Source of the DNA: Candidatus Woesearchaeota archaeon | Lineage (GTDB): Archaea; Nanobdellota; Nanobdellia; Woesearchaeales; ARS49 | Assembly (NCBI GenBank): GCA_038891615.1 | Contig: JAWADY010000002.1 | Span: forward strand, 1-64,000 | Reading direction: 5' to 3' | Length of the DNA stretch: 64,000 nucleotides | Shown: piece by piece, positions 5,293-47,667 of the stretch | How the letters are laid out: each line of letters opens with the position of its first letter | How positions within the stretch are numbered: position 1 is the first letter of the stretch | Program-made: the position numbers and the translations under genes | Notes under the pieces: model-generated | The model's database searches: none | Seen by the model: only the letters and a program-made list of their open reading frames with translations | Told to the model about the DNA's origin: nothing

Positions 5293-5314
5293 CGCGTACA
5301 TTGCTCTCATAAAT

Positions 5315-5396
5315 AGCCCGAGTTTGCAAAGTGCAGGCGTTTATAGGGCTAAGCTTGTGCTTAGTTCTGCTTCAGTTAAATCCAACAAACAGGGCA
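5315..5396 (+). promoter_or_regulatory. Candidate structured 5' leader of the uS13-uS4-uS11-rpoD operon
   Basis: Nested pairing of GCCCgaGTTTG (5316-5326) with CAAACAGGGC (5386-5395), plus inner hairpin AGGGCTAAGC-ttgt-GCTTAGTTCT. Confidence 0.4.
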
Positions 5397-5401
5397 TAAA
5401 A

Positions 5402-26153: not shown

Positions 26154-26500
26154 GCCACTCCACTTGAAATGAAGGTTTATAAACATTTTGATTTAAGTGG
26201 AAACACCCCTTTATTTCGTGTGGAAGTTTGTGGGTTTTTGAATTGATGGCTTGAGAATAACAATAATTTTTCAATATTTGAACAAAATAAAACAATAACT
26301 TATTCTTATTTTCAATATTAAAAAATAGTTATTAAATAAAAAAATTTTATTTCAATATTAAAAAATAAGCTATAAAAGAAGAATGATTAATTGTTTAAAA
26401 CCAATGAATTGAAAGTTTAAAAATAATGAATTAAACAATTGTGACATTTATAACAACTAAACAAAAATCACTGAAGTTCCAAACGAAACAAAGGGGTTGC
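26154..26500. other. Replication origin (oriC): ORB elements flanking an AT-rich DUE
   Basis: ORB-like TCCACTTGAAATGAAGG (+, about 26159), TTCCACACGAAATAAAGGGGT (-, 26205-26225) and GTTCCAAACGAAACAAAGGGGT (+, 26476-26497). An AT-rich core with repeated TTTCAATATT lies between them, directly upstream of cdc6. Confidence 0.85.
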
Positions 26501-26573
26501 TCTGAAGTTTGTCTATAAAAACCTTTATATATTAGTTATGCCTTTTTAGTAGTAACTTAAAGCTATTATAAAA

Positions 26574-27356
26574 ATGATTGTAAATGCCGAATTTTTAAGC
26601 AGACTTAGAGATTTTGGTTTGAATGCCTATGAAGCAAGACTTTGGGTTGCGCTAATTTCTAAAGGAATCTCGACTGCTGGAGAGCTTTCTGACATTGCCA
26701 ATGTTCCTAGGAGCAGAAGTTATGATGTTCTTGAAAGCCTCGAAAAAAAGGGCTTTATCATAATGAAGCTTAGTAAGCCGATAAAGTATATTGCTGTTCC
26801 TCCATCAGAGGTCATTGAGCGTATGAAAGAAAAGATTGCTGAGGAAGCAAAAAGAAAGGCGGTTTTTCTTGAAAAAATAAAAAATGACGCAATTCTAGAA
26901 AAGCTGGAGCTTCTGCATAATAATGGAATGGCCAAAGTTAATAAACAGGATTTGATTGGCTCAATAAAAGGTAAACAAAACATTTATCATCACATAAGGT
27001 TGATAATAAAATCCGCAAAAAAATCAATTCTCATCACAGCATCTAAAACCACACTTTTAGAGATTATCCTTTCACTTAAAGGTGCATTGGAAAAAGCAAG
27101 AGCAAATGGCGCTCATACACTCATCATTGCACCCGACAAAAAGCTTTCAACAGACATCAGAAAACTACTACCATTTGTGAAAGTAAAAGCTTGCAAACAC
27201 AATAGTGATGTTGCTTTTATTGTCGTTGATAAAAAAGATGTTCTTTTGACTGCTTTTGGCGATAGCACACTACCAGCAAATAGCTATGCTATCTGGGCAA
27301 GCAACGAATCCTTTGCAAAAGGCATTGAAGATGTTGTTCTTGCAACTATGAAATAA
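26574..27356 (+). CDS. TrmB-family transcriptional regulator (paralog 1)
   Basis: FGLNAYEA, ELSDIANVPRSRSYDVLESLEKKG, PIKY.AVPP; PLD-like C-domain. Confidence 0.9.
   Translation: MIVNAEFLSRLRDFGLNAYEARLWVALISKGISTAGELSDIANVPRSRSYDVLESLEKKGFIIMKLSKPIKYIAVPPSEVIERMKEKIAEEAKRKAVFLEKIKNDAILEKLELLHNNGMAKVNKQDLIGSIKGKQNIYHHIRLIIKSAKKSILITASKTTLLEIILSLKGALEKARANGAHTLIIAPDKKLSTDIRKLLPFVKVKACKHNSDVAFIVVDKKDVLLTAFGDSTLPANSYAIWASNESFAKGIEDVVLATMK
26679..26815 (+). repeat. 137-bp near-identical repeat, copy 1 (copy 2 at 51698-51834)
   Basis: Manual alignment shows 2 mismatches in 137 nt; flanking sequence is divergent. Confidence 0.9.
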
Positions 27357-32837: not shown

Positions 32838-33854
32838 TTATGGTAGGAATGTTTGCCCAAGCTCCTCAAGCACTTGTTTATTTTGCTCAAACCACTTTCT
32901 TGCCTTTGAGAAAAGTTTTGTAAGAGCGTCCGCAACACCTTTTTTTAGATCAGCTGGATGAAGCTTTTTTTCAACAAAAGCCTGTTCAAGTTCAGCATAA
33001 CTTTCAAACTCAGCCCTTCCACCAAACCTCTCTTGCCTTTCGATTGTTAGCCTTCCAACGATAGGAAAAATGATGTGCCTGCATATCTGGAGGACTGGAT
33101 TGTTTGCAATCTCTCCTGCCGGACAATATGCTGCGCTCAATTTCGCAGCAATCTGCTCTTCGCTATCATAGATTTTTATGTGCGAGGCTGGAATTGATGC
33201 TGACATCTTTGTTCCAGGCCCCTTTAAGGAAAGTACTAGGGGAGTCATTATTTCAACCCTTTTCTTGTAACCAAGCTTTGGAAGCCACTCACGAGCATAA
33301 GCAAAGATGTGTCTTTGGTCAAGCCCTCCTAATTGCATGTCAACTCCCAGATATTCCTCATCAAGGGCTTGCATTATTGGATATATCAGCTCAGAAACCT
33401 TTGGGCTTTTCATCCTCGTAACCTCTGAAGCAGCTCTTTTTGCACGCTCGACGGTGGTTAGTGTTGAGAGCTTAAGCACATCAAGGGAGTATGCCTTTTC
33501 AAGCTGAAAGCTTGAGCCTATGACAAAATTTGGAGTCTCTTGCCAAGGGAGTGCAAGTTCTATGCATTTTTTGTAGTATGCCGTCCTTTTCTCAGTTTCC
33601 TCCCAGGGTGTCTTTAGGTCATCCAGCGCCGCATGAATGTCAGCAAGTAGGATTTTTGTTTTTATTCCAGCTGACATAAAATCAAAAAGTTTCGAAAGAG
33701 GCACAAGATAGCCAATGTGAAAAGGACCTGTTGGCGCTGTTCCATAATACGCAAAAAGCCTTTTCTTTTCTCTTAGAAGGCTTACAAGCTCCTGCTCTGT
33801 CAATATTTCCGCAACATTCCGCTTGATTAGCTCAAGCCTTTTTTCAACATCCAT
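32838..33854 (-). CDS. tyrS: Tyrosyl-tRNA synthetase
   Basis: GTAPTGPFHIGY, LADIHA, YPIMQALD, GGLDQR, KMSAS, LHPADLK. Confidence 0.95.
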   Translation of the reverse strand: MDVEKRLELIKRNVAEILTEQELVSLLREKKRLFAYYGTAPTGPFHIGYLVPLSKLFDFMSAGIKTKILLADIHAALDDLKTPWEETEKRTAYYKKCIELALPWQETPNFVIGSSFQLEKAYSLDVLKLSTLTTVERAKRAASEVTRMKSPKVSELIYPIMQALDEEYLGVDMQLGGLDQRHIFAYAREWLPKLGYKKRVEIMTPLVLSLKGPGTKMSASIPASHIKIYDSEEQIAAKLSAAYCPAGEIANNPVLQICRHIIFPIVGRLTIERQERFGGRAEFESYAELEQAFVEKKLHPADLKKGVADALTKLFSKARKWFEQNKQVLEELGQTFLP

Positions 33855-33901
33855 TCCCTTAAGCAGCTCTGTGCTTTATTTAAAACTTTTCAGCAATTTT
33901 A

Positions 33902-34033
33902 GGCTGTTAACTTATTGTAGATAATTAGTTTTCTACTTAAAAGAAGACCTCATTAAAGTCTTAATGGCAATAGTGTTTGTAATAAAAAGGAAGATTTAAT
34001 GTTTAAGGCAGCAACATTAAGTTAACAGAACCC
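33902..34033. mobile_element. MITE-like internally deleted IS remnant (left island boundary)
   Basis: CTGTTAACTTA at 33904 is inverted relative to TAAGTTAACAG at 34018-34028; the same end sequences recur at 41048-41091. Confidence 0.6.
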
Positions 34034-34056
34034 TAAAAGGTGACTCCGCAGCAATT

Positions 34057-34542
34057 TCACTTAACGCTGGACGCATTTTCAAACTTCCCGTGGCATCTCT
34101 TATATTTCTTACCGCTCCCGCAGGGGCACGGTTGATTTCTCGCAATCCACCAATGGAATTGGGTTATCATCACCAAAAGGGTTGCTTTTCTTATCTTCTG
34201 GGACTGCATCCATATCTACGGTACCTACGACTCTAAATTTAAGTGATGGTTTTTTTCACGAATCAAAGACACCAAACCACCAAATGCATCTTGAGCACTA
34301 GATACTAATTCAACAAATTCATCCATATCCAAAACAACTATGGGGAAGTGGGGGCAAAAATAGCCGCCATCATTTCCAGTTACAAATGGCTTGGCATCTT
34401 TTTTCGTTTTTACAAACAATAAATACGATTTATACTCCTTTTGCAACAATGAGTTACATTTGGGACATCTCTTACTATCTTTTATATCAGATAACCAATA
34501 CATTTCACGAGGTATTGACAATTTATATCTTTCAGTTCTCAT
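34057..34542 (-). pseudogene. Frameshifted SEC-C motif protein (gene-cassette ORF)
   Basis: ORF 34225-34542 (CPKC...GGYFCP) continues in other frames as [24 protein letters not shown] and [18 protein letters not shown]; AAGGGGA SD right after the attC-like site. Confidence 0.7.
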
Positions 34543-34566
34543 TCATATCCCCTTGTTGCGTCTTGC

Positions 34567-34653
34567 GTATAACGTATGCGATTAAGAGAAGTTTTTGCGA
34601 AGCAAAAATTTTGGGAAAATTTGCAGGATTTTCCCTCCTAATCACTGTTAGCG
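34567..34653 (-). repeat. attC-like integron cassette recombination site
   Basis: On the minus strand: CGCTAAC...GATTAGGAG...CTCTTAATC...GTTATAC. It is an imperfect palindrome with two internal hairpins and is followed directly by the next ORF. Confidence 0.7.
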
Positions 34654-34679
34654 TCCTGAATGAAGTGAAAGCCCGTACA

Positions 34680-35155
34680 TCCACCCCATATAGAATTGGA
34701 AAGTCAAAACCTCTTGTGTTAAAGAGTATTATTTCTTTTAATTTTTCTATCTCATCATTAGAATATCCAAATTCTCCACCAAAAATAAGACCTTTTATTT
34801 TTTTAAATATGCCTAATAGTCTTAAATCGGCTAAAAAACCATCTATATTTGATAAAGATCTTCTTTAAAAAAGATTCCCCTTCAGGAGTTTCTAAAAAAA
34901 GAATTTTTCCTGAAAAATCAGGCCAATATTCAGTTCCTTTCGTATGCATAATTGAAGTAATACATCCGCCAATAATTTTTCCCATAGCATTCCCTTCTCT
35001 TAACCACTCATAACCTTTATTTTTTTATATTCTCTTTTTAATTGTAAATCCTCTTTTTTAACCAGTTTGCTTTTTTGCAATCAGTCCATTTTTCTGATGG
35101 TAAAACCTTGCCGATAGGTAAATTAGAACAAATACAATTAATAAATTTTTCATAC
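34680..35155 (-). pseudogene. Fragmented MccF-like S66 LD-carboxypeptidase (C-terminal half)
   Basis: Across frameshifts: EWLREGNAMGKIIGGC...PDFSGKILFLETPEG...LGIFKKIKGLIFG...FPILYGVDV, truncated before the catalytic GHT. Confidence 0.75.
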
Positions 35156-35180
35156 CAGCAGAAAATTTTCATTTATAAAT

Positions 35181-35936
35181 TCAAGAATAATTTCTACATA
35201 AAACTGCCCATTTTTGATAAGGTTCTTTTAATCCAAAATTTCTAAAAAAGATAATTTTCATATTAACTCTTTTAGCTAAGTTTTTTAGTAATTCTTTGGA
35301 AAAAGTTAAATACAGTGCTTCGCTACCTAATCTCATTTTATTATTTTCATCATAAAATGTAATTTTAAAATATCTTTTTCTATTAATTTTATATGTAGTA
35401 ACGTTAAAAGACCATTTATTTTGTAAATATCTTTTTTGAGATTGGCCGTCTTTGTAAGTTTTTGAATAATCTCGTTCATCAATCCAGCTAAAAATAATGA
35501 TCCCTTTTTCTTTCAGATTTTTTTTAATTTTATTCAAAAATCGTTGCAAAATTTTAATATTTGGAAACGTTTGGATTAAAAAAGTGGAAATGTAGATTAT
35601 ATTAAATTTCTTTTTAAGATTTAACTTTTTAATATCTTTTGAGATAAATTTTGCATTTTTAATTTTTTTATTTCTTGCAATCTTTATTAGTTTTTTTGAT
35701 ATATCAACACCAAATAATGCCTTGAAATCTTTGAGATATAAAAATAGATTTCCTGTACCACATCCTATATCTAATAAAGAAGTTTTATACGGACTGATCT
35801 TACTTTTGTTCAAAAGTTTTTTAATAAATTTTGCTTCTCCTTCATAGTCATTCAAAAAGAAATAAGTAATGTCATAATAATTTTTATCTCCAAAGAATCT
35901 AAATTTTGTTTCTTCAACATTTTTTAGTTTTTTCAT
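35181..35936 (-). CDS. Class I SAM-dependent methyltransferase
   Basis: YYD...DYEGEAKF, LLDIGCGTG, GVDIS, LKEKGIIIF. Confidence 0.85.
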   Translation of the reverse strand: MKKLKNVEETKFRFFGDKNYYDITYFFLNDYEGEAKFIKKLLNKSKISPYKTSLLDIGCGTGNLFLYLKDFKALFGVDISKKLIKIARNKKIKNAKFISKDIKKLNLKKKFNIIYISTFLIQTFPNIKILQRFLNKIKKNLKEKGIIIFSWIDERDYSKTYKDGQSQKRYLQNKWSFNVTTYKINRKRYFKITFYDENNKMRLGSEALYLTFSKELLKNLAKRVNMKIIFFRNFGLKEPYQKWAVLCRNYS

Positions 35937-36471
35937 ATTTCTCTTTAAGTAAACTTAGAATAATCTCATCATAAAATTTTCCTCTTAAATAATGATGTTT
36001 AGGATTTATTCCATCTACATTAAACTTAAATTTACTTAAAAGTTTAAGCGATTTTTTATTTTCAGCTATAACTTTTGTAAATATCTTTTTTAGATTTAAT
36101 TCGTTAAATCCAAAGAGTAGTACTCTTTCTACCGCTTCACTCATTATCCCTCTATTCCAATATTTTCTATTCAAAAGATAGGCCAAACCTGCTCTTTGGT
36201 TTATTCTATCTATCTCATATAAACTTATAGTTCCAATCAATTTCTTATTAAAAATTATGCCAAAATCATATGCCTTTCCTTTTTTAAAATTACGAATAGA
36301 TTCTTTTATGTAATCGTTAGCGTTATCAAGGGTATAGGGCCAAGGAATAGATGGAAGCCATTTTATCACTTCTTTAGTAATATTTTTCTTTATGCTTATA
36401 GAGTCTTCTTTTCTTAAGTTCCTAAGAAACAATCTTTTTGTTTTTAATAATATAAGATTATTCCGTTGCAT
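35914..36471 (-). CDS. RimJ/RimL-type GNAT N-acetyltransferase
   Basis: TKRLFLR, PWPYT, LIGTI, YWNRGIMSEA, N..S..LL.K..F. Confidence 0.88.
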   Translation of the reverse strand: MQRNNLILLKTKRLFLRNLRKEDSISIKKNITKEVIKWLPSIPWPYTLDNANDYIKESIRNFKKGKAYDFGIIFNKKLIGTISLYEIDRINQRAGLAYLLNRKYWNRGIMSEAVERVLLFGFNELNLKKIFTKVIAENKKSLKLLSKFKFNVDGINPKHHYLRGKFYDEIILSLLKEKYEKTKKC

Positions 36472-37465
36472 TTTCCAATATTTCTATAATCTTTTTTTCT
36501 GAATTTATTCTTGTTTTGACCCCTATCGGGAGAGTAATCATTGGCGATGTGTGTCCTATATCTACGTCCATTATAATCGGGATTTTATATTTTTCTCCGA
36601 AATCTTTTAATATATCAAATAATTCTCCTTCAGGAGAATCAATTTTTAGATTGAATGGTCTTCCGTATATTAAACCTTTTATTTTATTGAAGACTCCTAC
36701 TTGTTCTAAATGTACAAGATTTCTTTCAGTAGAAGAAGTTGATTCTCCTTCATCTTCTAAAAATAGTATTGCATTAGAAAAATCAGGAAAAAATTCTGTG
36801 CCAGTCATTGCACAAATAGTATTTAAATTTCCTCCAATTAAGACGCCCTCAGATTCTCCTTCATAAACACATTTAGGAGGGGAGGCTTTCTTCATTTTTC
36901 TTTTTCTATTATCTTCTTTTTCCCACCACAAAATTTCTTCAGTGTATTCGTCTGGGAATTCTAAAATCCCTAAAGGTCTTACTTCAAAAAGGGCTTTTTT
37001 AAACCATTTAATAGTAAATGGATCTGGGCCACCATACTCTCCAAAAGTTGGTAAAATAGTAGGTCCATTAAATGTTATTAAATTTGATTTTTGATATAAA
37101 GCTAGATTTAGCATAGTTATATCGCTAAAACCGCAAAAGATTTTTGGATTTTGTTTTATTAAATCGAAGTCCAAAAAAGGAAGCACAGAATTAGAATTCC
37201 ACCCTCCAGTTGAACATATTATTGCTTTTATCTCATCATCTTTAAAAAAATTCATAATATCTTCTGCTCTTTGTTTTGATGTCCCTCCTGTATGCCTAAA
37301 GGAAGATACTGCATATTTTCCAAGTTTTACTTTTAATCCTAACTTTTCTAAAGCAACAAGACCTCTCTGTAATCTTCTAGGAAAAGGTTTTATTGTAGAA
37401 GATGGACTAACTATCCCAATTGTGTCCCCTTCTTTTAAATGTTTTGGCTTGATTATTTTTACCAT
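36458..37465 (-). CDS. S66 peptidase, MccF (microcin C self-immunity)-like LD-carboxypeptidase
   Basis: PKHLKEGDTIGIVSPS; intact Ser-Glu-His triad motifs GFSDIT, LFLED, GHT; Trp-rich loop EILWWE. Confidence 0.9.
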   Translation of the reverse strand: MVKIIKPKHLKEGDTIGIVSPSSTIKPFPRRLQRGLVALEKLGLKVKLGKYAVSSFRHTGGTSKQRAEDIMNFFKDDEIKAIICSTGGWNSNSVLPFLDFDLIKQNPKIFCGFSDITMLNLALYQKSNLITFNGPTILPTFGEYGGPDPFTIKWFKKALFEVRPLGILEFPDEYTEEILWWEKEDNRKRKMKKASPPKCVYEGESEGVLIGGNLNTICAMTGTEFFPDFSNAILFLEDEGESTSSTERNLVHLEQVGVFNKIKGLIYGRPFNLKIDSPEGELFDILKDFGEKYKIPIIMDVDIGHTSPMITLPIGVKTRINSEKKIIEILENATE

Positions 37466-38286
37466 CTTTCTTTTGTCAAAAAAAGTTCTATCTCATCTTG
37501 TTTTTTTCTTTTTTGAAAGAGCAATATAGAAAAATTACAATATTGAAGATTTTTGTTAAATAATCTAAAAACTTCAAGAAGTTTTTTTCTAAGAATTTCT
37601 TTTTTATGAAAGTTACGAAGATGATCTTTATTTATAAGATAATTTACATAATCTTTAAGTCGTTTTTTTCTATCTAGATATATAAAATCTCTGTCATAAT
37701 ATAATTCTAAAGAAATATTTAGCTTTAGTGAGACACTTCTAAATAGATTTATCCAAAAATCTTTGTCCCAGATTTCAATCTTTGTTCCAATTACTTTTGA
37801 TATCTTCTCAACCAAAGAAATTGGAGGTTTTTTGGAATAATAGATAGGTATCGCCACTAAAGTTCCTCTTGTTTTCAAAACTCTTAAATATTCTAAAATA
37901 GCTTTCTCTTTATTTTCTAAAAAAGAAGTAACATTGCTACACCATACAATATCAAAACTTTCGTCTTTAAAAGGAAGATTTAAGGCATCGGCCACTTTAA
38001 ACCTAGTTCTTTTTTTAACACCTTGTTCTGATGCATATCTTTTTGCTTCCCTTATTGACTCTTCGTTAATATCAATTCCTACAGCTTTACATCCTGTTAA
38101 CAAAGCAAGATTTACAGACGTAAAACCAGTGTTACATCCAATTTCTAATATTTTTTTAGATTTATCTATATTGGCATATGTTGCAACATAATTAATAGTA
38201 CGTATTCCTCCTGAAGGCCTATTTCTTTCTCTAGTAAGAGCCACTAATTCTGAGTAGGTCATATTATCTATTTCTTTAATATTCAT
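37459..38286 (-). CDS. Class I SAM-dependent methyltransferase
   Basis: NRPSGG, ILEIGCNTG, GIDI, ADALNLPFKDESFD, EYLRVLK. Confidence 0.87.
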   Translation of the reverse strand: MNIKEIDNMTYSELVALTRERNRPSGGIRTINYVATYANIDKSKKILEIGCNTGFTSVNLALLTGCKAVGIDINEESIREAKRYASEQGVKKRTRFKVADALNLPFKDESFDIVWCSNVTSFLENKEKAILEYLRVLKTRGTLVAIPIYYSKKPPISLVEKISKVIGTKIEIWDKDFWINLFRSVSLKLNISLELYYDRDFIYLDRKKRLKDYVNYLINKDHLRNFHKKEILRKKLLEVFRLFNKNLQYCNFSILLFQKRKKQDEIELFLTKERW

Positions 38287-39388
38287 TTTTAAGAAGATCA
38301 TCCAAATTTTTATAATAAACATTTTCTCCTTTTTTTATTGTTATTCTTCCGCTCTCAACTTCTTTATCTCCTATAAGATATTTTTCGTTTACACTCCAAA
38401 AATCAGCGAAGTCTAATTTTTCTTTTAATGTTAAATTTTTTCTATCATCCAAATAAATTTTATTATAGTTTTTTCTTAAAATAGTATACACTCTATCTGC
38501 CAATTCTACTTGTTTTTTTTCATTTATCTTAATAGGTATCACTACTTTTTCGAAAGGTTTTATTTTTTCTGGAAGATTAATTCTGCTTCCTAAAAGATTC
38601 GATTTTAAAGATGCTAGTAAAATACGTTGTGTTCCAATTCCATAAGTCCCTACAATGACCTGTTTAAATTCATTAGTTGAAGAGATGTATCTTACATTAA
38701 ATTTTTTAGAATCTAAATAACGATAGGCCATTGCTAAACTTAATCCTACAATCTTTTTTCCATTATATTCAAAAACTTCCCCATTATCATAAGGAAATAT
38801 ATATTCTATCCCATTATTTTTTTCTTTTTTCACAAAAGAAACATTCATCTTTTGGAACAAGCAGTCTAATGTTTCTTCAAAAAGAGCCATGGATTCAATA
38901 AATTCTTTTTCATTTTTGTCTAAAGTTATCATTACTATTCCTCCAAATTGTTTAGTTTTGAGGGTTCCTTCTGGACGTTTTATATTTCTGAAACATTCAC
39001 TTAAAGCAAAATATCTTAATGGTAGCTGATAATGAGATAATATGTCTTTTTCAAATAGTTCTAGTAAATATTCTTCGGATGTTGCAAGAAGAACTTTATT
39101 GTTGAATTCAAATATTTGATCTGAAAAATCTTTATACTTCCCGCTTTTTAATAATAAATCTTTTTTATGGATTAAGGGTATCTGTACTTGATAAAACTCT
39201 TTTTTATTTAAATAATCAATAATTAAGTTATTGATGTTATCTAATAAAATCTTTCCAAAGGGAGAAAAGAAAAGAAATCCTGCATCTATGTAAGAAGCGA
39301 GTCCTAAATTTAAAACTAAATCTTTATCATTAACATGTTCTTGAAATTTTCTAAATTTTTCTTGAAAAATAATTTTTGATAGTCTCAT
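38276..39388 (-). CDS. Prolyl-tRNA synthetase-like paralog (class IIa catalytic plus anticodon-binding domain)
   Basis: SPFG, QIP..LLKSGK, LLATSEE, QLPLR..FRNIKRP, TYGIGTQR, PFEKVVIPI, LDDR..GDKEVE. Confidence 0.8.
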   Translation of the reverse strand: MRLSKIIFQEKFRKFQEHVNDKDLVLNLGLASYIDAGFLFFSPFGKILLDNINNLIIDYLNKKEFYQVQIPLIHKKDLLLKSGKYKDFSDQIFEFNNKVLLATSEEYLLELFEKDILSHYQLPLRYFALSECFRNIKRPEGTLKTKQFGGIVMITLDKNEKEFIESMALFEETLDCLFQKMNVSFVKKEKNNGIEYIFPYDNGEVFEYNGKKIVGLSLAMAYRYLDSKKFNVRYISSTNEFKQVIVGTYGIGTQRILLASLKSNLLGSRINLPEKIKPFEKVVIPIKINEKKQVELADRVYTILRKNYNKIYLDDRKNLTLKEKLDFADFWSVNEKYLIGDKEVESGRITIKKGENVYYKNLDDLLKNEY

Positions 39389-39390
39389 TT

Positions 39391-40527
39391 TCAAGGCACC
39401 ATTATTTTATCTACCCTTGGAAAATGACAAACACTCCAAATAAAAGGCATTTCTAATAAGCCTTGTAAAAACCTCTCCCATCCAAGTCCAAACCCTGATG
39501 TTTCTTTGTAGTTTTCTAATATTCTTGATTGTAAATAGGGTTCATAATCTTTTTTTGGTAAATTAAAAATTTTTGCTTTTTCTTTTAATTCTTTTATATT
39601 TCTTACTCTATGACCGCTACCAACTATTTCTATATAGCCAGGCCATATGAAATCTGCATTATCTGCTACTAATGGTTGTTTACCATCTACTACTGCATGA
39701 TAAAAAGGAACTTCGAATAGAGGAAACTCTTTAATTATGACCATTGTCTCTAAGATCTCTGTTATTTTGACTTCTTCCCATGCTCCAAAATTTTTTAGAG
39801 TAAATTCTTTATATTTTCTGTTTTTTGTCTCGTTATACAATAAATCCAAACACTCTTTAAAAGTTATTTTAGGAGTTTTTAAAATATTTTTAGCAAATTT
39901 TTTAAGTTCTTCTAACTTACTTTCAGTTAAAAAATAAGAAAGATCTTCTTTATGGCTTTTAAATAAATCAAAAATAATCTTTTTTATTAATTTCAAGACC
40001 ATCTTTTCATTTTCTTCTTGACTAATTTTTCCTTCAAATTCAATATGATGAAATTCTGATAAATGTGTAACATCTGCTCTTTCTTTCCTAAAAGAATTAT
40101 ATATAGAATACGCCTTATTGATATTTTTTTGAAGCAAAGCTAATTCTAAATAAATTTGAGAAGATTCTGATAAAAAAACTTTTTTTGGCAGGTTAAACCA
40201 TTTTAAAGTTATTGGACAAGTATCTTTTATGTAATTAAGTTTATACTTTCCATAAACTGCACATGGTGAAGAAATCATTCTCGTAGTGAGAGGTAAAGTT
40301 ATAAATAATGCTCCTTCTTTATCAAAAAATTCATTAGCAGATTTATTTATAGAATGGTTTATTTTAGATAAATGAAACCACACATCATTATTCTTCAAAG
40401 ACTCAACTCGGTTTTTAATTTCATTCACAGAAACGTCAATTTCAAGAACATCCTTAATAGGCCTAAATATTTTATTTCCCCTATAAGAAATAGTTCCATC
40501 TTTATTGGCATGATAAGGGCCAAGCAT
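39391..40527 (-). CDS. Asn/Asp-tRNA synthetase-like catalytic-domain-only paralog (class IIb)
   Basis: FLSESSQIYLE, SFRKE...HLSEF.HIE.E, PFYH, EIVGSG.R, SGFGLGWERF, FPR; no N-terminal OB anticodon domain. Confidence 0.82.
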   Translation of the reverse strand: MLGPYHANKDGTISYRGNKIFRPIKDVLEIDVSVNEIKNRVESLKNNDVWFHLSKINHSINKSANEFFDKEGALFITLPLTTRMISSPCAVYGKYKLNYIKDTCPITLKWFNLPKKVFLSESSQIYLELALLQKNINKAYSIYNSFRKERADVTHLSEFHHIEFEGKISQEENEKMVLKLIKKIIFDLFKSHKEDLSYFLTESKLEELKKFAKNILKTPKITFKECLDLLYNETKNRKYKEFTLKNFGAWEEVKITEILETMVIIKEFPLFEVPFYHAVVDGKQPLVADNADFIWPGYIEIVGSGHRVRNIKELKEKAKIFNLPKKDYEPYLQSRILENYKETSGFGLGWERFLQGLLEMPFIWSVCHFPRVDKIMVP

Positions 40528-40551
40528 AACATAAATACAAAAAATGGATAT

Positions 40552-40559
40552 TTATAAAA
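40552..40559 (-). promoter_or_regulatory. Archaeal-type TATA box for the aaRS-paralog operon
   Basis: TTTATAAA about 25 nt upstream of ATG 40527. Confidence 0.45.
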
Positions 40560-40649
40560 ATTGCTCTTTAAAATTCGTAAAATTTTTTAGATTAAGCAAC
40601 CCCTCTCAATCTTGTGGCAGATGGTCGGGGGACAGCCGAATTCTGAATT

Positions 40650-40690
40650 ACGCCTAACAACTATTAAGCGAGATAAATATTCGCTTTATA
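40650..40690 (-). other. attI-like recombination site
   Basis: Minus-strand GTTAGGC (GTTRRRY) at 40652-40658, preceded by inverted repeat AAGCGA...TCGCTT, between the operon and a divergent recombinase. Confidence 0.55.
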
Positions 40691-40696
40691 GTATAG

Positions 40697-41038
40697 ATGA
40701 GGTATAAAAAGCGAGATTTTATGAAGTTAGTTTCCATAATAAACTGGATGGTAGATGATAGTAAAATCCATTCTCCAGAAGAAAAATATAAACTGATTGG
40801 TAAGCTAGTCGAGGAACTAAAACTTAGAAGATATTCCTATCAAACAGGCAAGTCATATATTTCCACAGTGAAAGACTTTCTGTCTTCAGGTAAAACGCTG
40901 AGAGAGTTTCTGCTATTAGAATCTGGTACGGATATTCGATACATTCAGCAGTTATGAGGGTATAAAGATTTGAAAACGACACAAATCTACACTCACGTTG
41001 CAAATGAGAATATAAAGAAACTTGCAAATCTGCTTTAG
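40697..41038 (+). pseudogene. Tyrosine recombinase/integrase remnant (internal deletion, nonsense mutation)
   Basis: The N-domain LKLRRYSYQTGKSY is fused directly to the C-terminal [28 protein letters not shown]. The catalytic R and HxxR segments are missing. Confidence 0.85.
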
Positions 41039-41169
41039 CCTTTAGAGTTCTTTTAAGCAGAAGATTAATGCCTACAATAAGTTAACAGAACACCAAAAAG
41101 AAAGATTTAAATATGAGCATCATCCTTTTTGATTTAAAAGTTGTAACATTTTTGTGAAAAGGTGAACAG

Positions 41170-41433
41170 ATGGCTGATGATGAAAAGAAGTTCTCAAGAC
41201 AAATTCTTGGCAAAACTGTTGTTTCCAAAGCAGGAAAGCGCTTTGGGACTGTAGGGGATATTATTTTTGAAACAAAGTCGGGTGAGCTAATACATCTTGT
41301 GCTTACCGATCCTACGATATATGCTGAAAAGCTTGAGCTTGAGCGCTCAAAAGAAGGTGAAATGCTCATCCCCTTTAGCGCAGTCATTGCTGTTGGCGAC
41401 TTTGTAGTCGTGTCCGAAGAAGACCTTGTTTAG
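41170..41433 (+). CDS. PRC-barrel domain protein
   Basis: LGKTVVSKAGKRFGTVGDIIFETKSG...IPFSAVIAVGDFVVV. Confidence 0.88.
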   Translation: MADDEKKFSRQILGKTVVSKAGKRFGTVGDIIFETKSGELIHLVLTDPTIYAEKLELERSKEGEMLIPFSAVIAVGDFVVVSEEDLV

Positions 41434-41508
41434 CAATTTTCTTGTAGCTTAGCGATTGCAAACCTTTCAACAGGCAAAGTTATTTAAAGCAGCATTTCTT
41501 GGCTTTTT

Positions 41509-42477
41509 TTGGGGGTTAAATTGGAGAGCATATGGACTGAGAAGTATAGACCAAAGAGCTTTTCGGAATTTTATGGTCAAGAAGGAATAATTGAAAGGAT
41601 AAAAGCACTTGTTGAAAAAAAGAATCTTCCCCATCTACTATTCATAGGTCCTGCAGGGGTTGGCAAGACTTCCCTTGCACTCGTCATTGCACGAGAGGTT
41701 TTTGGAAGCAGGTGGTCTGAAAATTTTCTTGAGCTGAACGCCAGCGATGAACGAGGTATTGATGTTATTCGCAGCAAAGTAAAGGATTTTGCACGTACGC
41801 GTGCTATTGGTGATGTGCCTTTTAAGATAATCTACCTTGATGAGTGTGATGCCCTAACAAAAGAAGCCCAGCAAGCACTTCGCAGGACAATGGAAAACTA
41901 CACAAGGACCTGCCGATTTATCCTTTCTGCAAACTATGGCTCAAAAATAATTGATCCAATTCAGTCAAGATGCGCGCTATTCCATTTCAAGCCTCTCGAA
42001 AAGGAACATATCTATGGGGTCATTGAACGTGTGGCAAGCGCAGAAGGATTGTCCATAAGTTCAGAAGCAAAAGAAAGCCTTTATACAGTTTCCGAAGGAG
42101 ACTGCAGAAAGCTTCACAACATTCTTCAAAGCTGCGCAGCTCTTGGAAAAGAAATTACGCCTGAACTTGTACTCTCAGTCGCAGGCGCTAGTGCTTCTAC
42201 AGAGTTAAGGAAAGTTCTTGAGCTTGCCCTTGCAGGTCGGTTTGTTGACTCACGAAGGCTTCTCCTTGATGTTATGCTTACAAATGGCTTGTCTGGCGTT
42301 GATGTCATAAGGCAATTGCAAAAAGAAATTTGGTCGCTTCCTCTTGAGCCAAGGAAAAAAGTCGCCATAATTGATAAATGCGGTGAAATAGAGTTTAGAA
42401 TGGTAGAAGGATCAGACCCATACATCCAACTTGAAGCACTCTTAGCACACATTTGCGCAGAAGGAATGTACAAATAG
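41509..42477 (+). CDS. rfcS: Replication factor C small subunit
   Basis: WTEKYRP, GPAGVGKT, ELNASDERGID, LDECD, AQQALRRTME, QSRC. Confidence 0.96.
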   Translation: MGVKLESIWTEKYRPKSFSEFYGQEGIIERIKALVEKKNLPHLLFIGPAGVGKTSLALVIAREVFGSRWSENFLELNASDERGIDVIRSKVKDFARTRAIGDVPFKIIYLDECDALTKEAQQALRRTMENYTRTCRFILSANYGSKIIDPIQSRCALFHFKPLEKEHIYGVIERVASAEGLSISSEAKESLYTVSEGDCRKLHNILQSCAALGKEITPELVLSVAGASASTELRKVLELALAGRFVDSRRLLLDVMLTNGLSGVDVIRQLQKEIWSLPLEPRKKVAIIDKCGEIEFRMVEGSDPYIQLEALLAHICAEGMYK

Positions 42478-42497
42478 TTTTAACAAGCGTTTTATGG

Positions 42498-43421
42498 CTA
42501 TCCAGAGCGTTTCACTGTCAGGCTTGTCTGCTTAACCCCTTCAAAGTCATAGCTTGCGGTTATTGTTAGTCTTTGCTCAAAGTCAGCCGGTTTGACCTGT
42601 TGCGTACAGCTAATGCTCTTCTTGCCATCGAAAAGCGTAACGGTGCCTGATGCAACTGTTCCAGAGGTTGTTAATCCGGTGCAACTTATCTCTCCAAGCC
42701 CTGCGTCAACCGTTACACTAACTTTGTTTTCTTCAAGGCAGTTGCTCCCCGACGCAAAAACCTTTCCTTCTCCTTTTTTGACAATATCAAAGCTAAATCC
42801 AATCTTGTCAGATGTCCGCGCCGTCTCTCGAAGGTTTTCAATTTGTATCGGCGCACCCGAATTAAAGACGGTCTTTGCTTCATTAATTTCACACAATCCA
42901 CCAGCCTCTGGATTTAGTATGTTTTTGCGTACGCAAAGCAAACTTTCAGCTTTTGTGCCGTAGTTGTAACAAACACTTGCGGCAAGTGGGAATGTGAGAG
43001 ATGCTCCTGCTAGCCTTGACTTGTAATTTAGGTTTTTGAACTCAACAGTCACAGGTAGACTCTCAATGATACTGCCACTTAGGTCACGCTTGCGTTCAGG
43101 AAGATCCTCTGTAGGCCTTCCAACGAGCTGTTCCTCAAGAACACCAAACTCAGATGGATTTATTCCAAAAAGTTTAACCCGCACCTTATCCTTGCTTACT
43201 GTCCACTCCCCCTTATTTTGAAGTCGCACCGTTACATCAAAAAAGTCTCCCCCGCCATCAAAAACTTCTGAACGGAAATCAACAAATTCTATAGAAAGCC
43301 CGGTTGTTCCTCCAAGAAATGGCGTTCTTTCTGGTGTTTTTTCCTTAACAGGCTTGCAAGCTACTAACACAAACAAAAGCAATGAGAGCAAAAGCAGTTT
43401 CTGGAAAAACTTTCTTTTCAT
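42498..43421 (-). CDS. Lipoprotein-like Ig-fold surface protein (paralog family A)
   Basis: LVAC lipobox-like signal; NKGE, CYNYGT, GAPI motifs. Confidence 0.75.
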   Translation of the reverse strand: MKRKFFQKLLLLSLLLFVLVACKPVKEKTPERTPFLGGTTGLSIEFVDFRSEVFDGGGDFFDVTVRLQNKGEWTVSKDKVRVKLFGINPSEFGVLEEQLVGRPTEDLPERKRDLSGSIIESLPVTVEFKNLNYKSRLAGASLTFPLAASVCYNYGTKAESLLCVRKNILNPEAGGLCEINEAKTVFNSGAPIQIENLRETARTSDKIGFSFDIVKKGEGKVFASGSNCLEENKVSVTVDAGLGEISCTGLTTSGTVASGTVTLFDGKKSISCTQQVKPADFEQRLTITASYDFEGVKQTSLTVKRSG

Positions 43422-44835: not shown

Positions 44836-46023
44836 GTCAGATCTAATCAGGATAGATAAGGATGTATATGCAGTAGTACGTCCAAACGAGATTTTATATG
44901 TGCGTAAAGAAGAATTAGACAATTTTAAGGATTATTCTATCCAGCCTATAAAGGAAAAAGGAAAATCCTGTCTTTCAGCAACATTTGTTCCAACACTTGA
45001 TTGTAATTTGAGGTGCATATATTGTTATGCTCGTGGTGGGGAACAAAAAGATATGATGCCCTCTTCAATGGCTCGTAGATTTTTAGAAAAAATGTATGAT
45101 CCAGCAAAACACGATGGAATTCACTTAAGATTTGCAGGCGGGGGAGAACCTTTTCTCAATTTTGCGTGTATAAAAGAAGCAGTAGAAACTGCTAAGAAAT
45201 TAACAGTAAAGTTTCTTTACATTGTATAACTAATGGGACTTTTAATAAAGAACAATTGTTTTGGATATTAAAAGAAAGGCCTCATATGAGGGTTTCTTAT
45301 GATGGTTTATCTCAGGAAATACAAAGGCCTTATAGAGGAGGAGGGGATTCATCAAACATAGTAAGAAGAAATATCCGAGAGCTTACAGATAAAGGAATAG
45401 AAACTGTTGTTCAGTCTACAATTACATCTTTAAATGTTTCTAAGATGAGAGAACTTGTATCAGAATTTTATGAGCTAGGCGTTCGAACAATAAAAATGGA
45501 ACCAGTTTATATAACCGAGAATTCAAGGGGAAATGCGAAATTGAATATTTCCCCTTCTGAATTCGTTTCAAATTTTCTAGACGCGGTTAAATATATCAGA
45601 GAAAATAATCTGGAAATGCAGATAGATACTGCTTTTTTTTCACGACCAACGCTAGGAAATTATTGTAGCTTATCTACTGGAAATATAATCTTAACTCCAA
45701 GTGGAGGTATTAGTGGATGTGTTGAAATAACAAATAATTGTGATTATCATTCAGGAGATGTCTTTTATGGAAAATTTGAAGAAGGTTTAGGGGAAATCAG
45801 GTTTGACGAGTCTAAGAAAAAATCTTTTGGGAAATTTCATTTTAGTAATTACACTAATTGCCCATCCTGTAATTTAAAACTTATTTGCAAAGGAGGATGC
45901 CCTCTTAGAAGAATCTGGAATCAGGAAGATCATTTTTGTAAAATTACTAGAAGGTTAGTTCCGCAACTTCTAAAATTATTTTACAAGGATCCTTCTTATG
46001 TTAAAATATTTATTAAAAAATGA
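44771..46023 (+). pseudogene. Radical SAM/SPASM peptide-maturase-like gene split by one frameshift (about 45197)
   Basis: CNLRCIYC and GGGEP in ORF 44771-45229. The shifted frame gives SKVSLHCITNGT and runs into ORF 45256-46023 (VSYDG, QRP, C..G...SGC, CPSCNLKLICKGGCP). The true start is uncertain. Confidence 0.8.
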
Positions 46024-46724
46024 GACTAGATATTGCTTTAAAAAATAAAAAATTTGCCGATAGCAGGGAGAAGGCAAAATATCTTATTAGAGAAGGATAT
46101 GTCAAAGTAGACGGATCCATCGTTACAAAACCTAGTAAAAACGTTAGTGAAACCTCAAAAATTGTTTTGATTAAAGATTTTGAATTTGTTGGAAGAGGTG
46201 GCTATAAACTTGATGCGCCTGTGAAACATTTCAAAATCAGTTTTAATGACAAAATTGTCGCTGATGTTGGTTGCAGTACAGGAGGTTTTACAGATTATGC
46301 TTTAAAGCATGGGGCTAGGAGAGTATATTCTATAGATATAGGCGATCCTCTCTATGAAACTTTAAGGAAAGACCCAAGGGTTGTTTACCTTCCAAATAAT
46401 GACGCAAGAAATATCAAACGCTTGGACGAAAAGGTGGATATATGCTTAATTGATGTAACTTTCTCACCATTAGAAGAAATTCTTTTGGTTGTTAGAAATT
46501 GGTTAAAAGATAAGGGAGAAGTTCTTGGACTAATAAAACCTCCTTTTGAACTAGAAGGAAAACCTAAAAAAATATATGATTATAAAAAATGTTTTGATAT
46601 TGCTAAGGCTGTTTCTAATTGGGCATCAAAAAATGGATACGAAGTAAAGGGCTTAATTGATTCAAAATTAAAAGGCAAATCTTCAAAACAACAGGAATTT
46701 TTCATTTATCTTCTTAAGCAATAA
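46020..46724 (+). CDS. tlyA: TlyA-family rRNA 2'-O-methyltransferase (S4 domain plus FtsJ-like)
   Basis: MRLD..SREKA, VGRGGYKL, DVGCSTGGFT, DVTF, LIKP.FE. Confidence 0.9.
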   Translation: MRLDIALKNKKFADSREKAKYLIREGYVKVDGSIVTKPSKNVSETSKIVLIKDFEFVGRGGYKLDAPVKHFKISFNDKIVADVGCSTGGFTDYALKHGARRVYSIDIGDPLYETLRKDPRVVYLPNNDARNIKRLDEKVDICLIDVTFSPLEEILLVVRNWLKDKGEVLGLIKPPFELEGKPKKIYDYKKCFDIAKAVSNWASKNGYEVKGLIDSKLKGKSSKQQEFFIYLLKQ

Positions 46725-46749
46725 CAAACCTGCATGTGCGTTAGAGGCA

Positions 46750-47667
46750 CTACCTTGGCAACTTCTTTATCTCAAACTCTCTGCTAAATGCATCGTTATA
46801 ACCATACTCTAGTTCAATGCCAAGAACAGCATTAAATGTTCCAAGCCTTTTGTCAATTCCTTCTGGTAGCGTGCAGAGCGCCTCTGCTTCATTTTTTGAA
46901 AAGACCAACTCGCGTTGGCAGTTCATACTTTTGTCAAGAAGAGTAACGCGTAAGCCAGCCTTGTTAAAATCCTCAGCCTTAAGTAGTCCTGCCGCGCAAG
47001 CATCTGCTGCCCTTCCTGGTCTGACAATTATCCCTTTTCCATTATTCCTGAACTTCAGTAGAACTTGTGGCAAGACTTTTCCTTTGTCTGGATGGCTCAA
47101 AATTTTAGGTTCAACGCTTGTTAGCACAACCGGTGCGCCTTGGCCTGTCAGTTTAAGGCTTTGCATTCTACAAACTTTTTTATTCGAAGAGATCTCAGCA
47201 AAAAGGTCAGTATCTATACAAATCTCGGGAGCAGCAATTGTGGCATACTCATAGCAAATGTCAACAGTCGCTTTGGCTGGCAACCGCTCAAGCCCTGGCC
47301 CTAGTCCCATTGCTTTTGCTGGAATGGTCTCAATAATCTTTTCGCCAGTCGGGTTGTCGAGAGACTTGCCTTGAAGCTCAATAAAGCCGGACTCCTTTGA
47401 AAGCTGCACAGCATCCCTATTATAGTTTATGACATAAACTCCTCCAGAAACATCATTTGCTCCTTTGTTCCAAATCTCAAAGGCGAGGTCAAAGCTTGAG
47501 CCTTCATAAACAATCTGTGGTGGAGAGTTTTCAATCCACCTCAACACAAGCCCTTCTGTACCAGTATGTATTTGAGGCTGGACGCCTGCTGGTCGTGTTG
47601 TTACAAACTGGCAACCAGCAACCAGCAACGCTGCAAAAATGCCTATAAAAATAAGCCCTTTGCTCAT
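46750..47667 (-). CDS. Lipoprotein-like Ig-fold surface protein (paralog family A)
   Basis: VAGC signal; HTGTEGL, NKGA, CYEYAT.A..ICID, QGAPV, YGY. Confidence 0.75.
   Translation of the reverse strand: MSKGLIFIGIFAALLVAGCQFVTTRPAGVQPQIHTGTEGLVLRWIENSPPQIVYEGSSFDLAFEIWNKGANDVSGGVYVINYNRDAVQLSKESGFIELQGKSLDNPTGEKIIETIPAKAMGLGPGLERLPAKATVDICYEYATIAAPEICIDTDLFAEISSNKKVCRMQSLKLTGQGAPVVLTSVEPKILSHPDKGKVLPQVLLKFRNNGKGIIVRPGRAADACAAGLLKAEDFNKAGLRVTLLDKSMNCQRELVFSKNEAEALCTLPEGIDKRLGTFNAVLGIELEYGYNDAFSREFEIKKLPR

Follow-up and report, generated by a model that had tools for sequence, protein, structure and literature searches.

The locus described here raises the question of why a genome-reduced archaeon would carry, in one tight operon, two additional aminoacyl-tRNA synthetase (aaRS)-like genes together with genes for a peptidase, an acetyltransferase and two methyltransferases. 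The operon lies on the minus strand of a 64,000-nucleotide stretch of DNA from a Candidatus Woesearchaeota archaeon (assembly GCA_038891615.1, contig JAWADY010000002.1, positions 1 to 64,000), which was analysed as a whole and is called the window below. Natural aminoacyl-adenylate mimics that contain a nitrogen-phosphorus (N-P) bond, such as microcin C, agrocin 84 and phosmidosine, are potent aaRS inhibitors. On balance, we think it probable, if by no means certain, that the operon is a biosynthesis and immunity cassette for a compound of this sort, namely an N-acyl-phosphoramidate nucleotide, possibly prolyl and phosmidosine-like, that inhibits an aaRS. Judged by homology, the operon appears to be an archaeal member of a widespread, horizontally moving cassette family related to the agrocin 84 (agn) cluster, whose members also have tailoring and immunity enzymes in common with microcin C clusters.

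Read along the minus strand, the operon begins with AsnL (39391-40527, 378 aa), which encodes a catalytic domain derived from asparaginyl-tRNA synthetase (AsnRS) and belongs to an AgnA-like clade. It is followed by ProL (38276-39394, 372 aa, TTG start), a divergent paralog of bacterial-type prolyl-tRNA synthetase (ProRS), by MT2 (37459-38322, 287 aa as the longest open reading frame, ORF), an S-adenosylmethionine (SAM) transferase of the MccD/AgnB1 family, and by S66 (36458-37465, 335 aa), a serine peptidase of the MccF/AgnC5 type and candidate amidase. The last two genes are GNAT (35914-36471, 185 aa), an Acetyltransf_3 enzyme of the RimL/RimJ/MccE-C-terminal type that is a candidate acetylating immunity enzyme, and MT1 (35181-35936, 251 aa), a second class I SAM methyltransferase and candidate for accessory tailoring. 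Neighbouring genes overlap at all five junctions, the overlaps measuring 23, 14, 7, up to 47 and 4 nt from MT1 to AsnL, and internal stops are absent from all six genes. The GC content per kb is 0.225-0.293 across 35001-40000, as against 0.415 at 33001-34000 and 0.440 at 42001-43000. A preliminary description of this DNA, made from the sequence alone, had pictured six intact, overlapping genes in AT-rich foreign DNA; the ORFs and the contrast to surroundings of about 0.42-0.44 GC bear this out, and the domain identities that it had named were matched by Pfam and NCBIfam profiles. The flanking genes are archaeal and include Cdc6/Orc1, a DNA polymerase small-subunit type gene, FEN1/XPG, RFC, TyrRS and a tRNA-intron endonuclease. 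The host genome (661,270 bp in five contigs, 97.9% complete, about 42% GC) encodes elsewhere its own AsnRS (485 bits, cut-off 414), AspRS (517 bits, cut-off 353) and archaeal-type ProRS (619 bits, cut-off 437), so AsnL and ProL are extra paralogs; a SerRS above its curated cut-off is also present elsewhere.

The closest known counterpart of the operon is found on pAgK84, the plasmid of the agrocin 84 producer. Here, one strand carries a run of genes consisting of an 'asparagine synthetase A' (353 aa), a methyltransferase, leuS, a 420-bp ORF and a gene crossing the record's origin, and continuing with a short-chain dehydrogenase/reductase (SDR), a class I methyltransferase, an amidohydrolase, an S66 peptidase, a dioxygenase and a radical SAM protein. 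In the passages of a review that treat this cluster, AgnA is described as having an aaRS-type adenylation domain and is proposed to join a pentanamide precursor to AMP via a phosphoramide bond, AgnC1 is remotely ProRS-like, AgnB1, AgnC3 and AgnC7 are SAM enzymes, and AgnB2 is an immunity LeuRS (PMC8323819). The same passages mention agn-like clusters in Ensifer and in Actinobacteria, often with a MetRS gene (PMC8323819). The agn names used below were mapped onto the annotated pAgK84 genes by the review's descriptions and the gene order, and the correspondence is thus inferred.

AsnL is clearly derived from AsnRS, and yet a housekeeping AsnRS identity was rejected: the Pfam match to tRNA-synt_2 spans residues 37-372 only, the anticodon-binding OB domain (tRNA_anti-codon) is missing, the NCBIfam asnS profile scores 133 bits against a cut-off of 414, and the true AsnRS, to which AsnL is about 25% identical, is encoded elsewhere in the genome. 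Asparagine synthetase A models are matched over their full length, at 110 bits against a cut-off of 389. The protein keeps class II motif 2 (FRKER..HLSEF) and motif 3 (GFGLGWER). An AlphaFold2 model (pLDDT 84.2, pTM 0.87; less confident at a conserved loop, residues 82-120, and at 148-158) finds its best fold matches among AsnRS structures (TMq 0.75). The pAgK84 'asparagine synthetase A' is 26% identical to AsnL over 339 aa (E 1e-26), and AsnL and its plasmid relatives have in common a TT..SSP...D(T/S).P motif that stands where AsnRS and AspRS have their 'EGG' loop. In a maximum-likelihood tree of 24 sequences, from which the archaeal asparagine synthetase A (AS-AR) was left out, ten AsnL sequences group with three AgnA-like ones in a clade (support 100/99) that is placed next to the AsnRS sequences and separate from AspRS and from the class II LysRS-like neighbours. 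A tblastn search of phage records with AsnL returned only matches of 25-28% identity in unannotated records, no closer than the host AsnRS. Homology thus makes AsnL a candidate adenylate-forming or N-P-bond-forming enzyme.

ProL presents a similar picture. It has the Pfam domains tRNA-synt_2b and HGTP_anticodon, and its best profile, bacterial ProRS (proS), reaches 111 bits against a cut-off of 558. The protein aligns with residues 22-192 and 408-537 of Enterococcus faecalis ProRS, skipping the INS editing domain. With this region missing, a score far below the cut-off and a true archaeal ProRS elsewhere, a housekeeping ProRS identity was likewise rejected. The preliminary description had seen both aaRS-like genes as something other than housekeeping synthetases, and their low scores and the true copies elsewhere agree with that. 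In the ProL family, the Arg of motif 2, the G..R of motif 3 and the T.E motif are nevertheless conserved; in fact, the AsnL, ProL, S66 and MT2 families all keep their catalytic residues. The relatives of ProL include an HGTP-type protein on a Streptomyces plasmid (29% identity, E 5e-56) and an 'aminoacyl-tRNA ligase-related' protein in a like cluster of Xenorhabdus (28% identity, E 2e-29). ProL is therefore best described as a candidate ligase that may set the acyl or aminoacyl group of the product.

The MT2 and S66 proteins tie the operon to both agrocin 84 and microcin C. In Pfam, MT2 and MT1 match Methyltransf_31, 25 and 11, and MT1 also matches Methyltransf_23. Homologs of MT2 align from about residue 10-16 of the longest ORF, and its best match in the Protein Data Bank (PDB) is MccD (5fcd), which aligns over the full length (17-269 against 13-264 of 267; E 1e-22), whereas all other solved methyltransferases match at the Rossmann core only. 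MT2 is 31% identical to Escherichia coli MccD (E 2e-27). Its best plasmid match in a tblastn search is the pAgK84 methyltransferase, with 36% of residues identical across 97% of the query (E 2e-51 by tblastn, 8e-62 by blastp). By sequence relationship, MT2 is thus a candidate alkyltransferase, adding a methyl or a 3-amino-3-carboxypropyl group, that acts on a phosphoramidate. The preliminary description had correctly recognised two methyltransferases and had missed the specific MccD/AgnB1 family of MT2.

For the S66 protein, Pfam reports Peptidase_S66 and S66C at 130 and 112 bits. Its best solved relatives are the MccF structures 3gjz from Bacillus anthracis (E 2.5e-58) and 3tla from E. coli (E 2.4e-55), and the murein LD-carboxypeptidase (LdcA) structures follow only at 1e-29 to 1e-18. 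Compared to E. coli MccF (plasmid MccC7-H22), with which it shares 36% identity (E 1e-59), residues S118/W186/E243/H311 align with S114/W181/E237/H305; we take E243 and H311 to be the remainder of the MccF triad. The pAgK84 S66 peptidase (34% identity over 336 aa, E 5e-62) shares the triad and the Trp, and the equivalent of W186 is kept in at least 80% of 53 members of the S66 family. A blastn search of E. coli genomes with the gene gave no match. In MccF, as the review passages report, W186 stacks on the adenine, and S118 is the residue changed in a catalytic mutant (PMC8323819). The earlier assignment as an MccF-like peptidase holds, with the Ser-His-Glu triad and the adenine-stacking Trp kept and MccF scoring far above LdcA. 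On these grounds, S66 is a candidate amidase cleaving an aminoacyl-C(O)-NH-P bond, which could serve in immunity, in the processing of an intermediate, or in both.

The two remaining genes are less distinctive. GNAT scores 94 bits against Acetyltransf_3, and its PDB matches include YdaF (1nsl, 1e-13) and, as the fourth distinct match, MccE (3r95, 4e-12). It falls among the RimL/RimJ/SpeG/MccE-type enzymes, of which YdaF and SpeG score as well as or above MccE, and is 27% identical to residues 440-585 of MccE (E 1e-14). MT1 matches the pAgK84 methyltransferase at 42303-43052 weakly, at the Rossmann core (E 6e-7). In PADLOC, MT1 and MT2 gave only generic methyltransferase matches (mad2).

To place the operon among its relatives, we rely on loci collected with AsnL as the query. 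A scan of species-representative genomes gave 17 loci, in Woesearchaeota, Nanoarchaeota, Moraniibacteria, Minisyncoccota, Saccharibacteria, Bdellovibrionales and a gammaproteobacterial metagenome-assembled genome (MAG); by tblastn, S66 was found in 15 of them, MT2 in nine, ProL in five, and GNAT and MT1 in none. A metagenome scan gave 179 relatives, the best 80 of which were taken. ORFs were called and clustered in 97 loci, 94 of which have an AsnL ORF, and these fall into 85 groups at 97% identity; the neighbourhood counts refer to the 53 groups with at least 3 kb downstream, the other 32 being left out. In 51 of the 53, a methyltransferase gene lies near AsnL. It is MccD-like in 39, directly adjoining AsnL in 25 (in the window, ProL lies between them), and belongs in 12 to another class I family that occupies the same slot (MTc3). 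MTc3 was considered as a further MccD-like group and rejected because only the Rossmann core matches. S66 accompanies AsnL in 43/53 loci, a HIT-domain protein in eight, and one or the other in 48; S66 or a 328-aa amidohydrolase-like protein is present in 49. A further aaRS-like gene of any kind is found in 43/53, ProL-type in 26 and LeuRS-like in seven. The GNAT family of the window is near AsnL in three loci, following S66 in L052 and L067 and lying upstream of AsnL in L083, and the MT1 family occurs in one other locus, L052, which holds the same six families in the window's order. The conserved core is accordingly the trio of AsnRS-like protein, methyltransferase and S66, with the ProRS-like protein, GNAT and MT1 as accessory members. 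Whether the gene set recurs elsewhere had been left as a check by the preliminary description; the counts for methyltransferase (51), S66 (43) and further aaRS-like genes (43) answer in its favour. The distribution is patchy at the same time, AsnL being present in 13 of 400 sampled genomes of the phylum and in one of 28 in the same family.

The genes that vary around this core suggest chemistry of the same kind. Besides ProL-type genes, the relatives carry a protein resembling LeuRS (670 aa; 277 bits against a cut-off of 677), another resembling MetRS (498 aa; 197 bits against a cut-off of 587), class II LysRS-like proteins that are all under their cut-offs, weak HisRS-like and AlaRS-like proteins, and a class I LysRS. 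True AsnRS genes, all above the cut-off, lie beside AsnL in L101, L107, L110 (two copies, 218-1498 and 4503-5795) and L113; these could be resistant versions of the target or remains of the duplication from which AsnL arose. Paired ProRS-type genes occur in 5/53 loci, and each of the four pairs scanned consists of one true-like copy, of the bacterial type and without INS, and one divergent copy. The true-like copies exceed the TIGR00409 cut-off of 306.7 (500-502 bits in L044 and L090, 473 in L005, 341 in L016), and the divergent ones reach 119-218 bits. By analogy with AgnB2, we infer that the former could be resistant targets and the latter biosynthetic ligases. A pyridoxal phosphate (PLP)-dependent decarboxylase of the ornithine/diaminopimelate/arginine type is present in L045, L054 and L055 and matches residues 22-336 of MccE (E 9e-13). 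This link comes from the direct comparison; a search against plasmids, which returned only generic lysA-type matches, was set aside. Together with the MccD-like gene, the decarboxylase would complete the aminopropylation pair that the review passages describe (PMC8323819). According to passages of the literature, MccH is a hydrolase of the HIT class that splits the phosphoramide bond in processed compounds of the microcin C type (PMC8323819, PMC7157772), and the HIT proteins of the relatives belong to the same enzyme class, the likeness being at class level. A divergent double winged-helix regulator of the AsnC/Lrp type is encoded in 16 of the 97 loci. In addition, a variant cassette without S66 was observed in L074, L091, L097, L099, L101-L103, L107, L108, L110 and L113: most of them have, after AsnL, the 328-aa protein, which has a weak Amidohydro_2 match, often also a HIT protein and sometimes a small GNAT. 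The 328-aa protein has no BLAST similarity to the pAgK84 amidohydrolase, whose gene adjoins the S66 gene on that plasmid.

Based on these relationships, we propose how the cassette might work. AsnL would use ATP to build the N-P-linked core, the role proposed for AgnA, and MT2 would alkylate the phosphate, with a methyl group as in phosmidosine or a 3-amino-3-carboxypropyl group as in the case of MccD. ProL would supply or specify the acyl group, most simply proline, and MT1 might add a further methyl group. S66 would hydrolyse the acyl-C(O)-NH-P bond, either for self-immunity or as a processing step, and GNAT could acetylate the free alpha-amino group as a second layer of immunity. The product would have the form acyl-NH-P(O)(OR)-O-nucleoside, a non-hydrolysable aminoacyl-adenylate mimic inhibiting an aminoacyl-tRNA synthetase, and the cassette would have been brought in by an island that carried an integrase and later decayed. 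Two orders of steps would fit the data. In one of them, AsnL or ProL would activate the acyl group and join it to the nitrogen on the phosphate, leaving S66 for immunity only. A bolder order, argued by analogy and in our estimate rather doubtful, would make the trio a three-step phosphoramidate module with asparagine as nitrogen donor and a swappable aaRS-derived ligase that sets the target. AsnL would then make Asp-C(O)-NH-P-adenosine from Asn and two ATP via a succinimide, as MccB does on its peptide; the MccD/AgnB1-type enzyme, MT2, would alkylate the phosphate; and S66 would release aspartate, leaving the free nucleoside 5'-(O-alkyl)phosphoramidate. The nitrogen of this compound would finally be acylated by the swappable ligase (Pro-, Leu-, Met-, Lys-, His- or Ala-like; here ProL), and the product would be a phosmidosine-like prolyl (O-methyl)phosphoramidate of adenosine that an ultra-small episymbiotic archaeon would use against its host or competitors. 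Such an order would explain why a constant trio is combined with a varying partner aaRS-like gene, and also why the trio is part of the cluster for agrocin 84, a compound with a leucine-like acyl group.

Other readings of the operon have to be weighed against the biosynthetic one. The preliminary description had left the choice between a biosynthetic cassette with self-immunity and a multi-layer shield, the latter meaning that the island would only protect against aaRS-targeting aminoacyl-nucleotide antibiotics made by others, with S66 hydrolysing, GNAT acetylating and the methyltransferases modifying the antibiotic and the aaRS paralogs acting as insensitive substitutes or decoys. MccF, the C-terminal domain of MccE and RimL-type GNATs are indeed established resistance enzymes according to the review passages (PMC8323819), of 400 other genomes sampled in the phylum, 62 have S66 on its own, and the island is without an exporter. 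AsnL, however, cannot simply replace AsnRS because it lacks the anticodon-binding domain, AsnL and a methyltransferase form the most constant pair of the cassette (51/53 loci), and the same trio is found on the agrocin 84 producer plasmid. Moreover, we know of no resistance role for AsnL or for an MccD/AgnB1-type transferase. Because AsnL, MT2 and S66 are homologous to three genes of the producer plasmid pAgK84, biosynthesis with immunity is favoured over resistance alone; of the two earlier alternatives, the first gains from this homology, and the shield we regard as unlikely. The proposal that AsnL on its own makes a microcin-C-type warhead from asparagine, an aspartamidyl- or asparaginyl-adenylate analogue hitting AspRS or AsnRS, strikes us as improbable to the same degree. 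S66 and GNAT would in that case be pure immunity factors, and ProL would add an N-terminal residue or be a resistance gene. It would fit that AsnL keeps the AsnRS-like S.Q...E and G.G.R positions, which we take to bind the side chain in AsnRS, and that true AsnRS copies flank AsnL in four loci (L101, L107, L110 and L113). MccF of E. coli and of B. anthracis acts on aspartyl and isoasparaginyl adenylates, as stated in the review passages (PMC8323819). An AgnA-like enzyme and S66 are, however, also part of the agrocin 84 cluster, where the acyl group is a leucine analogue and the target LeuRS, and the partner aaRS-like genes and true-like duplicates track Pro, Leu, Met and Lys, not Asp.

Three further readings leave the antibiotic idea to a varying extent, and each has little to recommend it. 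The chemistry could be the same and the product an intracellular abortive-infection or dormancy signal against viruses instead of an exported antibiotic, for which the island location, the patchy spread, the missing exporter and the AsnC/Lrp-type regulators of 16/97 loci might be quoted; as PADLOC returned only the generic methyltransferase matches, no phage-sensing component was seen and the known relatives are secreted antibiotics, we consider this very improbable. An assignment to primary metabolism or salvage, with AsnL as asparagine synthetase A, ProL as spare ProRS, S66 in peptide recycling and the rest as unrelated housekeeping genes, could appeal to the full-length match of AsnL to asparagine synthetase A models and to the annotation of its pAgK84 homolog. 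The match stays at 110 bits against 389, the gene is patchy (13/400 genomes) and, in archaea and bacteria alike, goes strictly together with MccD-like and MccF-like genes, and to our knowledge an archaeon offers no murein substrate to an S66 LD-carboxypeptidase, so that this reading, too, deserves very little credence. Least credible to us is the modification of a macromolecule, in which AsnL, acting like EpmA/PoxA, would aminoacylate a protein or RNA, MT2 and MT1 would methylate the target and S66 would reverse the mark. Catalytic aaRS domains without anticodon-binding domains can modify elongation factor P, and AsnL weakly matches EpmA models (E 0.008-0.009), but related loci share no conserved target gene, and homology points to the small-molecule enzymes MccD, MccF and AgnA.

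The surroundings of the operon speak of a mobile origin. Upstream of AsnL, an integrase (tyrosine-recombinase) remnant at 40697-41039 (plus strand) joins an N-terminal SAM-like piece, for which Pfam gives a weak Phage_int_SAM_4 match that stays below the cut-off (E 0.0015), to a C-terminal piece with '...IYTHV...', which we ourselves take to be an integrase motif, and it contains an in-frame TGA; decayed mobility genes had already been mentioned in the preliminary description. Just downstream of MT1 lies the remnant of a second S66 gene (34532-35024, minus strand), of which only the C-terminal domain is left, in two frames, with the N-terminal domain gone and the position of the catalytic His lost. 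Its fragments correspond to residues 202-242 (55% identity, E 1e-11) and 241-314 (32%, E 2e-7) of the intact S66. A 25-nt direct repeat (D11; 88% identity between the copies, both on the plus strand) is found at 34014-34038, a GC transition and possible att-like island border, and at 41074-41098, again at a GC transition. The core of the repeat, the exact 13-mer AAGTTAACAGAAC, is confined within the window to 34019 and 41079, both at these transitions; 0.18 occurrences were expected, and two copies were reached in 2 of 100 shuffles. ARAGORN found no tRNA in the window, and no Rfam family was detected in 33500-41600 at E 0.1. We read the region as an integrated element of roughly 7 kb that has lost its mobility gene and one cargo copy to decay. 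As a separate observation, the minus strand at 34057-34542 holds a 105-aa ORF without Pfam match (34225-34542) and then, in another frame, a stretch of 52 aa with a metal-binding SEC-C motif (E 4e-11), which together are probably one frameshifted gene at the island edge. Two other features of base composition were recorded: a GC dip to 0.307 at 26001-27000, in the gap beside the Cdc6/Orc1 gene (24918-26186), which is a possible replication origin, and another low-GC patch at 45001-47000 (0.33-0.35).

Several observations weigh against a working biosynthetic cassette and have to be set beside the evidence in its favour. Because both the integrase and the S66 copy next to the operon are pseudogenes and the island is decaying, the operon could be a silent relic, and the sequencing runs that contain the locus are six DNA runs from two studies, any of which may be the source of this DNA, with no RNA run listed. 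No transporter is found among the ORFs between the island borders, all of which are accounted for, as the preliminary description had already remarked; agn and mcc clusters have an exporter. Unlike the agn cluster, the island also carries no full-length resistant aaRS. GNAT and MT1 are rare in the relatives (3/53 and 1/53 loci), and AsnL is universal in the locus set because all loci were found by searching with it. AsnL is only 26% identical to the AgnA-type protein. ProL has no BLAST match to AgnC1 at E 0.01, and an hhalign comparison of 37 ProL-family sequences with AgnC1 remained weak (probability 6.9%, E 0.005) over 243 colinear columns that include FRN.K. The agrocin 84 pathway is itself described as unknown in the review passages (PMC8323819), and the analogy therefore carries proposals, not demonstrated steps. 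Finally, S66 may be a general defence gene, since it is common on its own in the phylum: it is present in 62 of the 400 other sampled genomes (one of them, G395, unpublished), namely in eight of the 13 AsnL-positive genomes, in six of which it shares the contig with AsnL at a distance of no more than about 6 kb, and in 54 of the 387 AsnL-negative ones. The sample is a partial control, as related genomes are not independent. The presence of S66 in many murein-less archaeal genomes, mostly without AsnL, suggests a widespread stand-alone protection against aminoacyl-nucleotide compounds.

Should the biosynthetic reading hold, the locus would bear on a long-open question, as the only N-P-bond-making enzyme known to us is that of microcin C, MccB. 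AgnA-like, MccD/AgnB1-like and MccF-like genes make up a conserved module in which the aaRS-derived partners and the immunity enzymes can be exchanged and which is spread over DPANN archaea, candidate phyla radiation (CPR) bacteria, Bdellovibrionales, Xenorhabdus, Streptomyces and Agrobacterium. It offers a short, testable set of enzymes, and the N-P chemistry still to be solved may reside in its core of three genes. If asparagine were the nitrogen donor as in the bolder order of steps, exchange of a single gene would retarget the inhibitor to another synthetase, and the N-P step of agrocin 84 would be explained likewise. The module also provides a genome-mining handle for new aaRS inhibitors and would be a first indication of antibiotic-type chemistry in genome-reduced, host-dependent archaea and bacteria. 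In the literature searched, which covered few subscription journals, there is no report of agn- or mcc-type genes in archaea, DPANN or CPR. The preliminary description had spoken of a new system. This stands for the archaeal and CPR variant; it does not for the system as a whole, whose relationship to agrocin 84 had been missed and which is best filed under the known agrocin 84/microcin C kind of aminoacyl-nucleotide antibiotic cluster.

Comparison with known systems helps to specify this placement. The archaeal asparagine synthetase A (AS-AR, 3p8t) resembles AsnL in being an AsnRS catalytic domain without an anticodon-binding domain. The match between the two is, however, weak (E 3.5e-6, C-terminal part only) and below the NCBIfam cut-offs, and AsnL differs by its TT..SSP insert, its distinct N-terminus and its clustering with AgnA-like proteins. 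With microcin C, the window shares the MccD-family MT2 and the MccF-family S66, and its GNAT matches the acetyltransferase domain of MccE; some relatives add a PLP decarboxylase of the MccE-N-terminal type or an MccH-like HIT hydrolase, the former being absent from the window. Compared to the E. coli cluster (MccC7-H22), the window lacks the major facilitator superfamily (MFS) exporter and has an AsnRS-derived enzyme in place of the N-P-forming one. A ThiF/MccB domain (PF00899) gave no match in the 97.9%-complete genome, although the same search hits 12 of 14 control genomes, and in a search limited to ATG starts and the region upstream of AsnL, no conserved small ORF ending in Asn, as expected for MccA, was found within 400 nt in the window and 17 other loci. 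The earlier conclusion that this is not a microcin C cluster thus finds support in a genome in which no ThiF was found and in 18 upstream regions without such an ORF.

Phosmidosine, produced by Streptomyces durhamensis, is an N-prolyl, O-methyl phosphoramidate of 8-oxoadenosine, a structure that would need a ProRS-like ligase, an O-methyltransferase and an N-P-forming enzyme. On a plasmid of Streptomyces sp. NBC_01707 (L126, 5895-14037), AgnA-like, MT2-like, FAD/molybdopterin oxidase, ProL-like and S66 genes lie together, which is the gene set one would expect for phosmidosine. Because the window is without the molybdopterin oxidase, no 8-oxo group is expected in its product; a molybdopterin protein similar to the Streptomyces one (E 8e-57) lies beside the cassette in one MAG (L004). 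The literature searched, which left most subscription journals outside, holds no published phosmidosine gene cluster, and the review lists phosmidosines among the phosphoramidate nucleotide antibiotics in the part that deals with them. The combination of AgnA-like, methyltransferase, ProRS-like and S66 genes recurs on a megaplasmid of Xenorhabdus bovienii CS03 (L125, 5825-14475), with genes for an asparagine synthetase A-like protein, a class I methyltransferase, an LD-carboxypeptidase and a nucleoside phosphorylase, then two VOC-type genes, leuS and the 'aminoacyl-tRNA ligase-related' protein; recombinase and transposase genes adjoin. The nucleoside phosphorylase recalls the Mtn requirement of MccD mentioned in the review passages (PMC8323819).

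The comparison that carries furthest is with agrocin 84. Relative to that cluster, the window is without a resistant aaRS, the ATP-binding cassette (ABC) exporter AgnG, and the radical SAM, dioxygenase, SDR, phosphoenolpyruvate (PEP)-utilising and nucleotidyltransferase genes; it adds a GNAT, its ProL is clearly related to ProRS, the likeness of AgnC1 to ProRS being only remote, and its host is a DPANN-type archaeon. What the two have in common is the AgnA-type, AgnB1-type and S66 genes with an aaRS gene in the cluster. On pAgK84, the AgnA-type gene is directly followed by the AgnB1-type gene, and the order AsnL, methyltransferase, LeuRS-like, ProRS-like and S66 that is seen in relatives such as L017 is likewise that of the agrocin 84 cluster.

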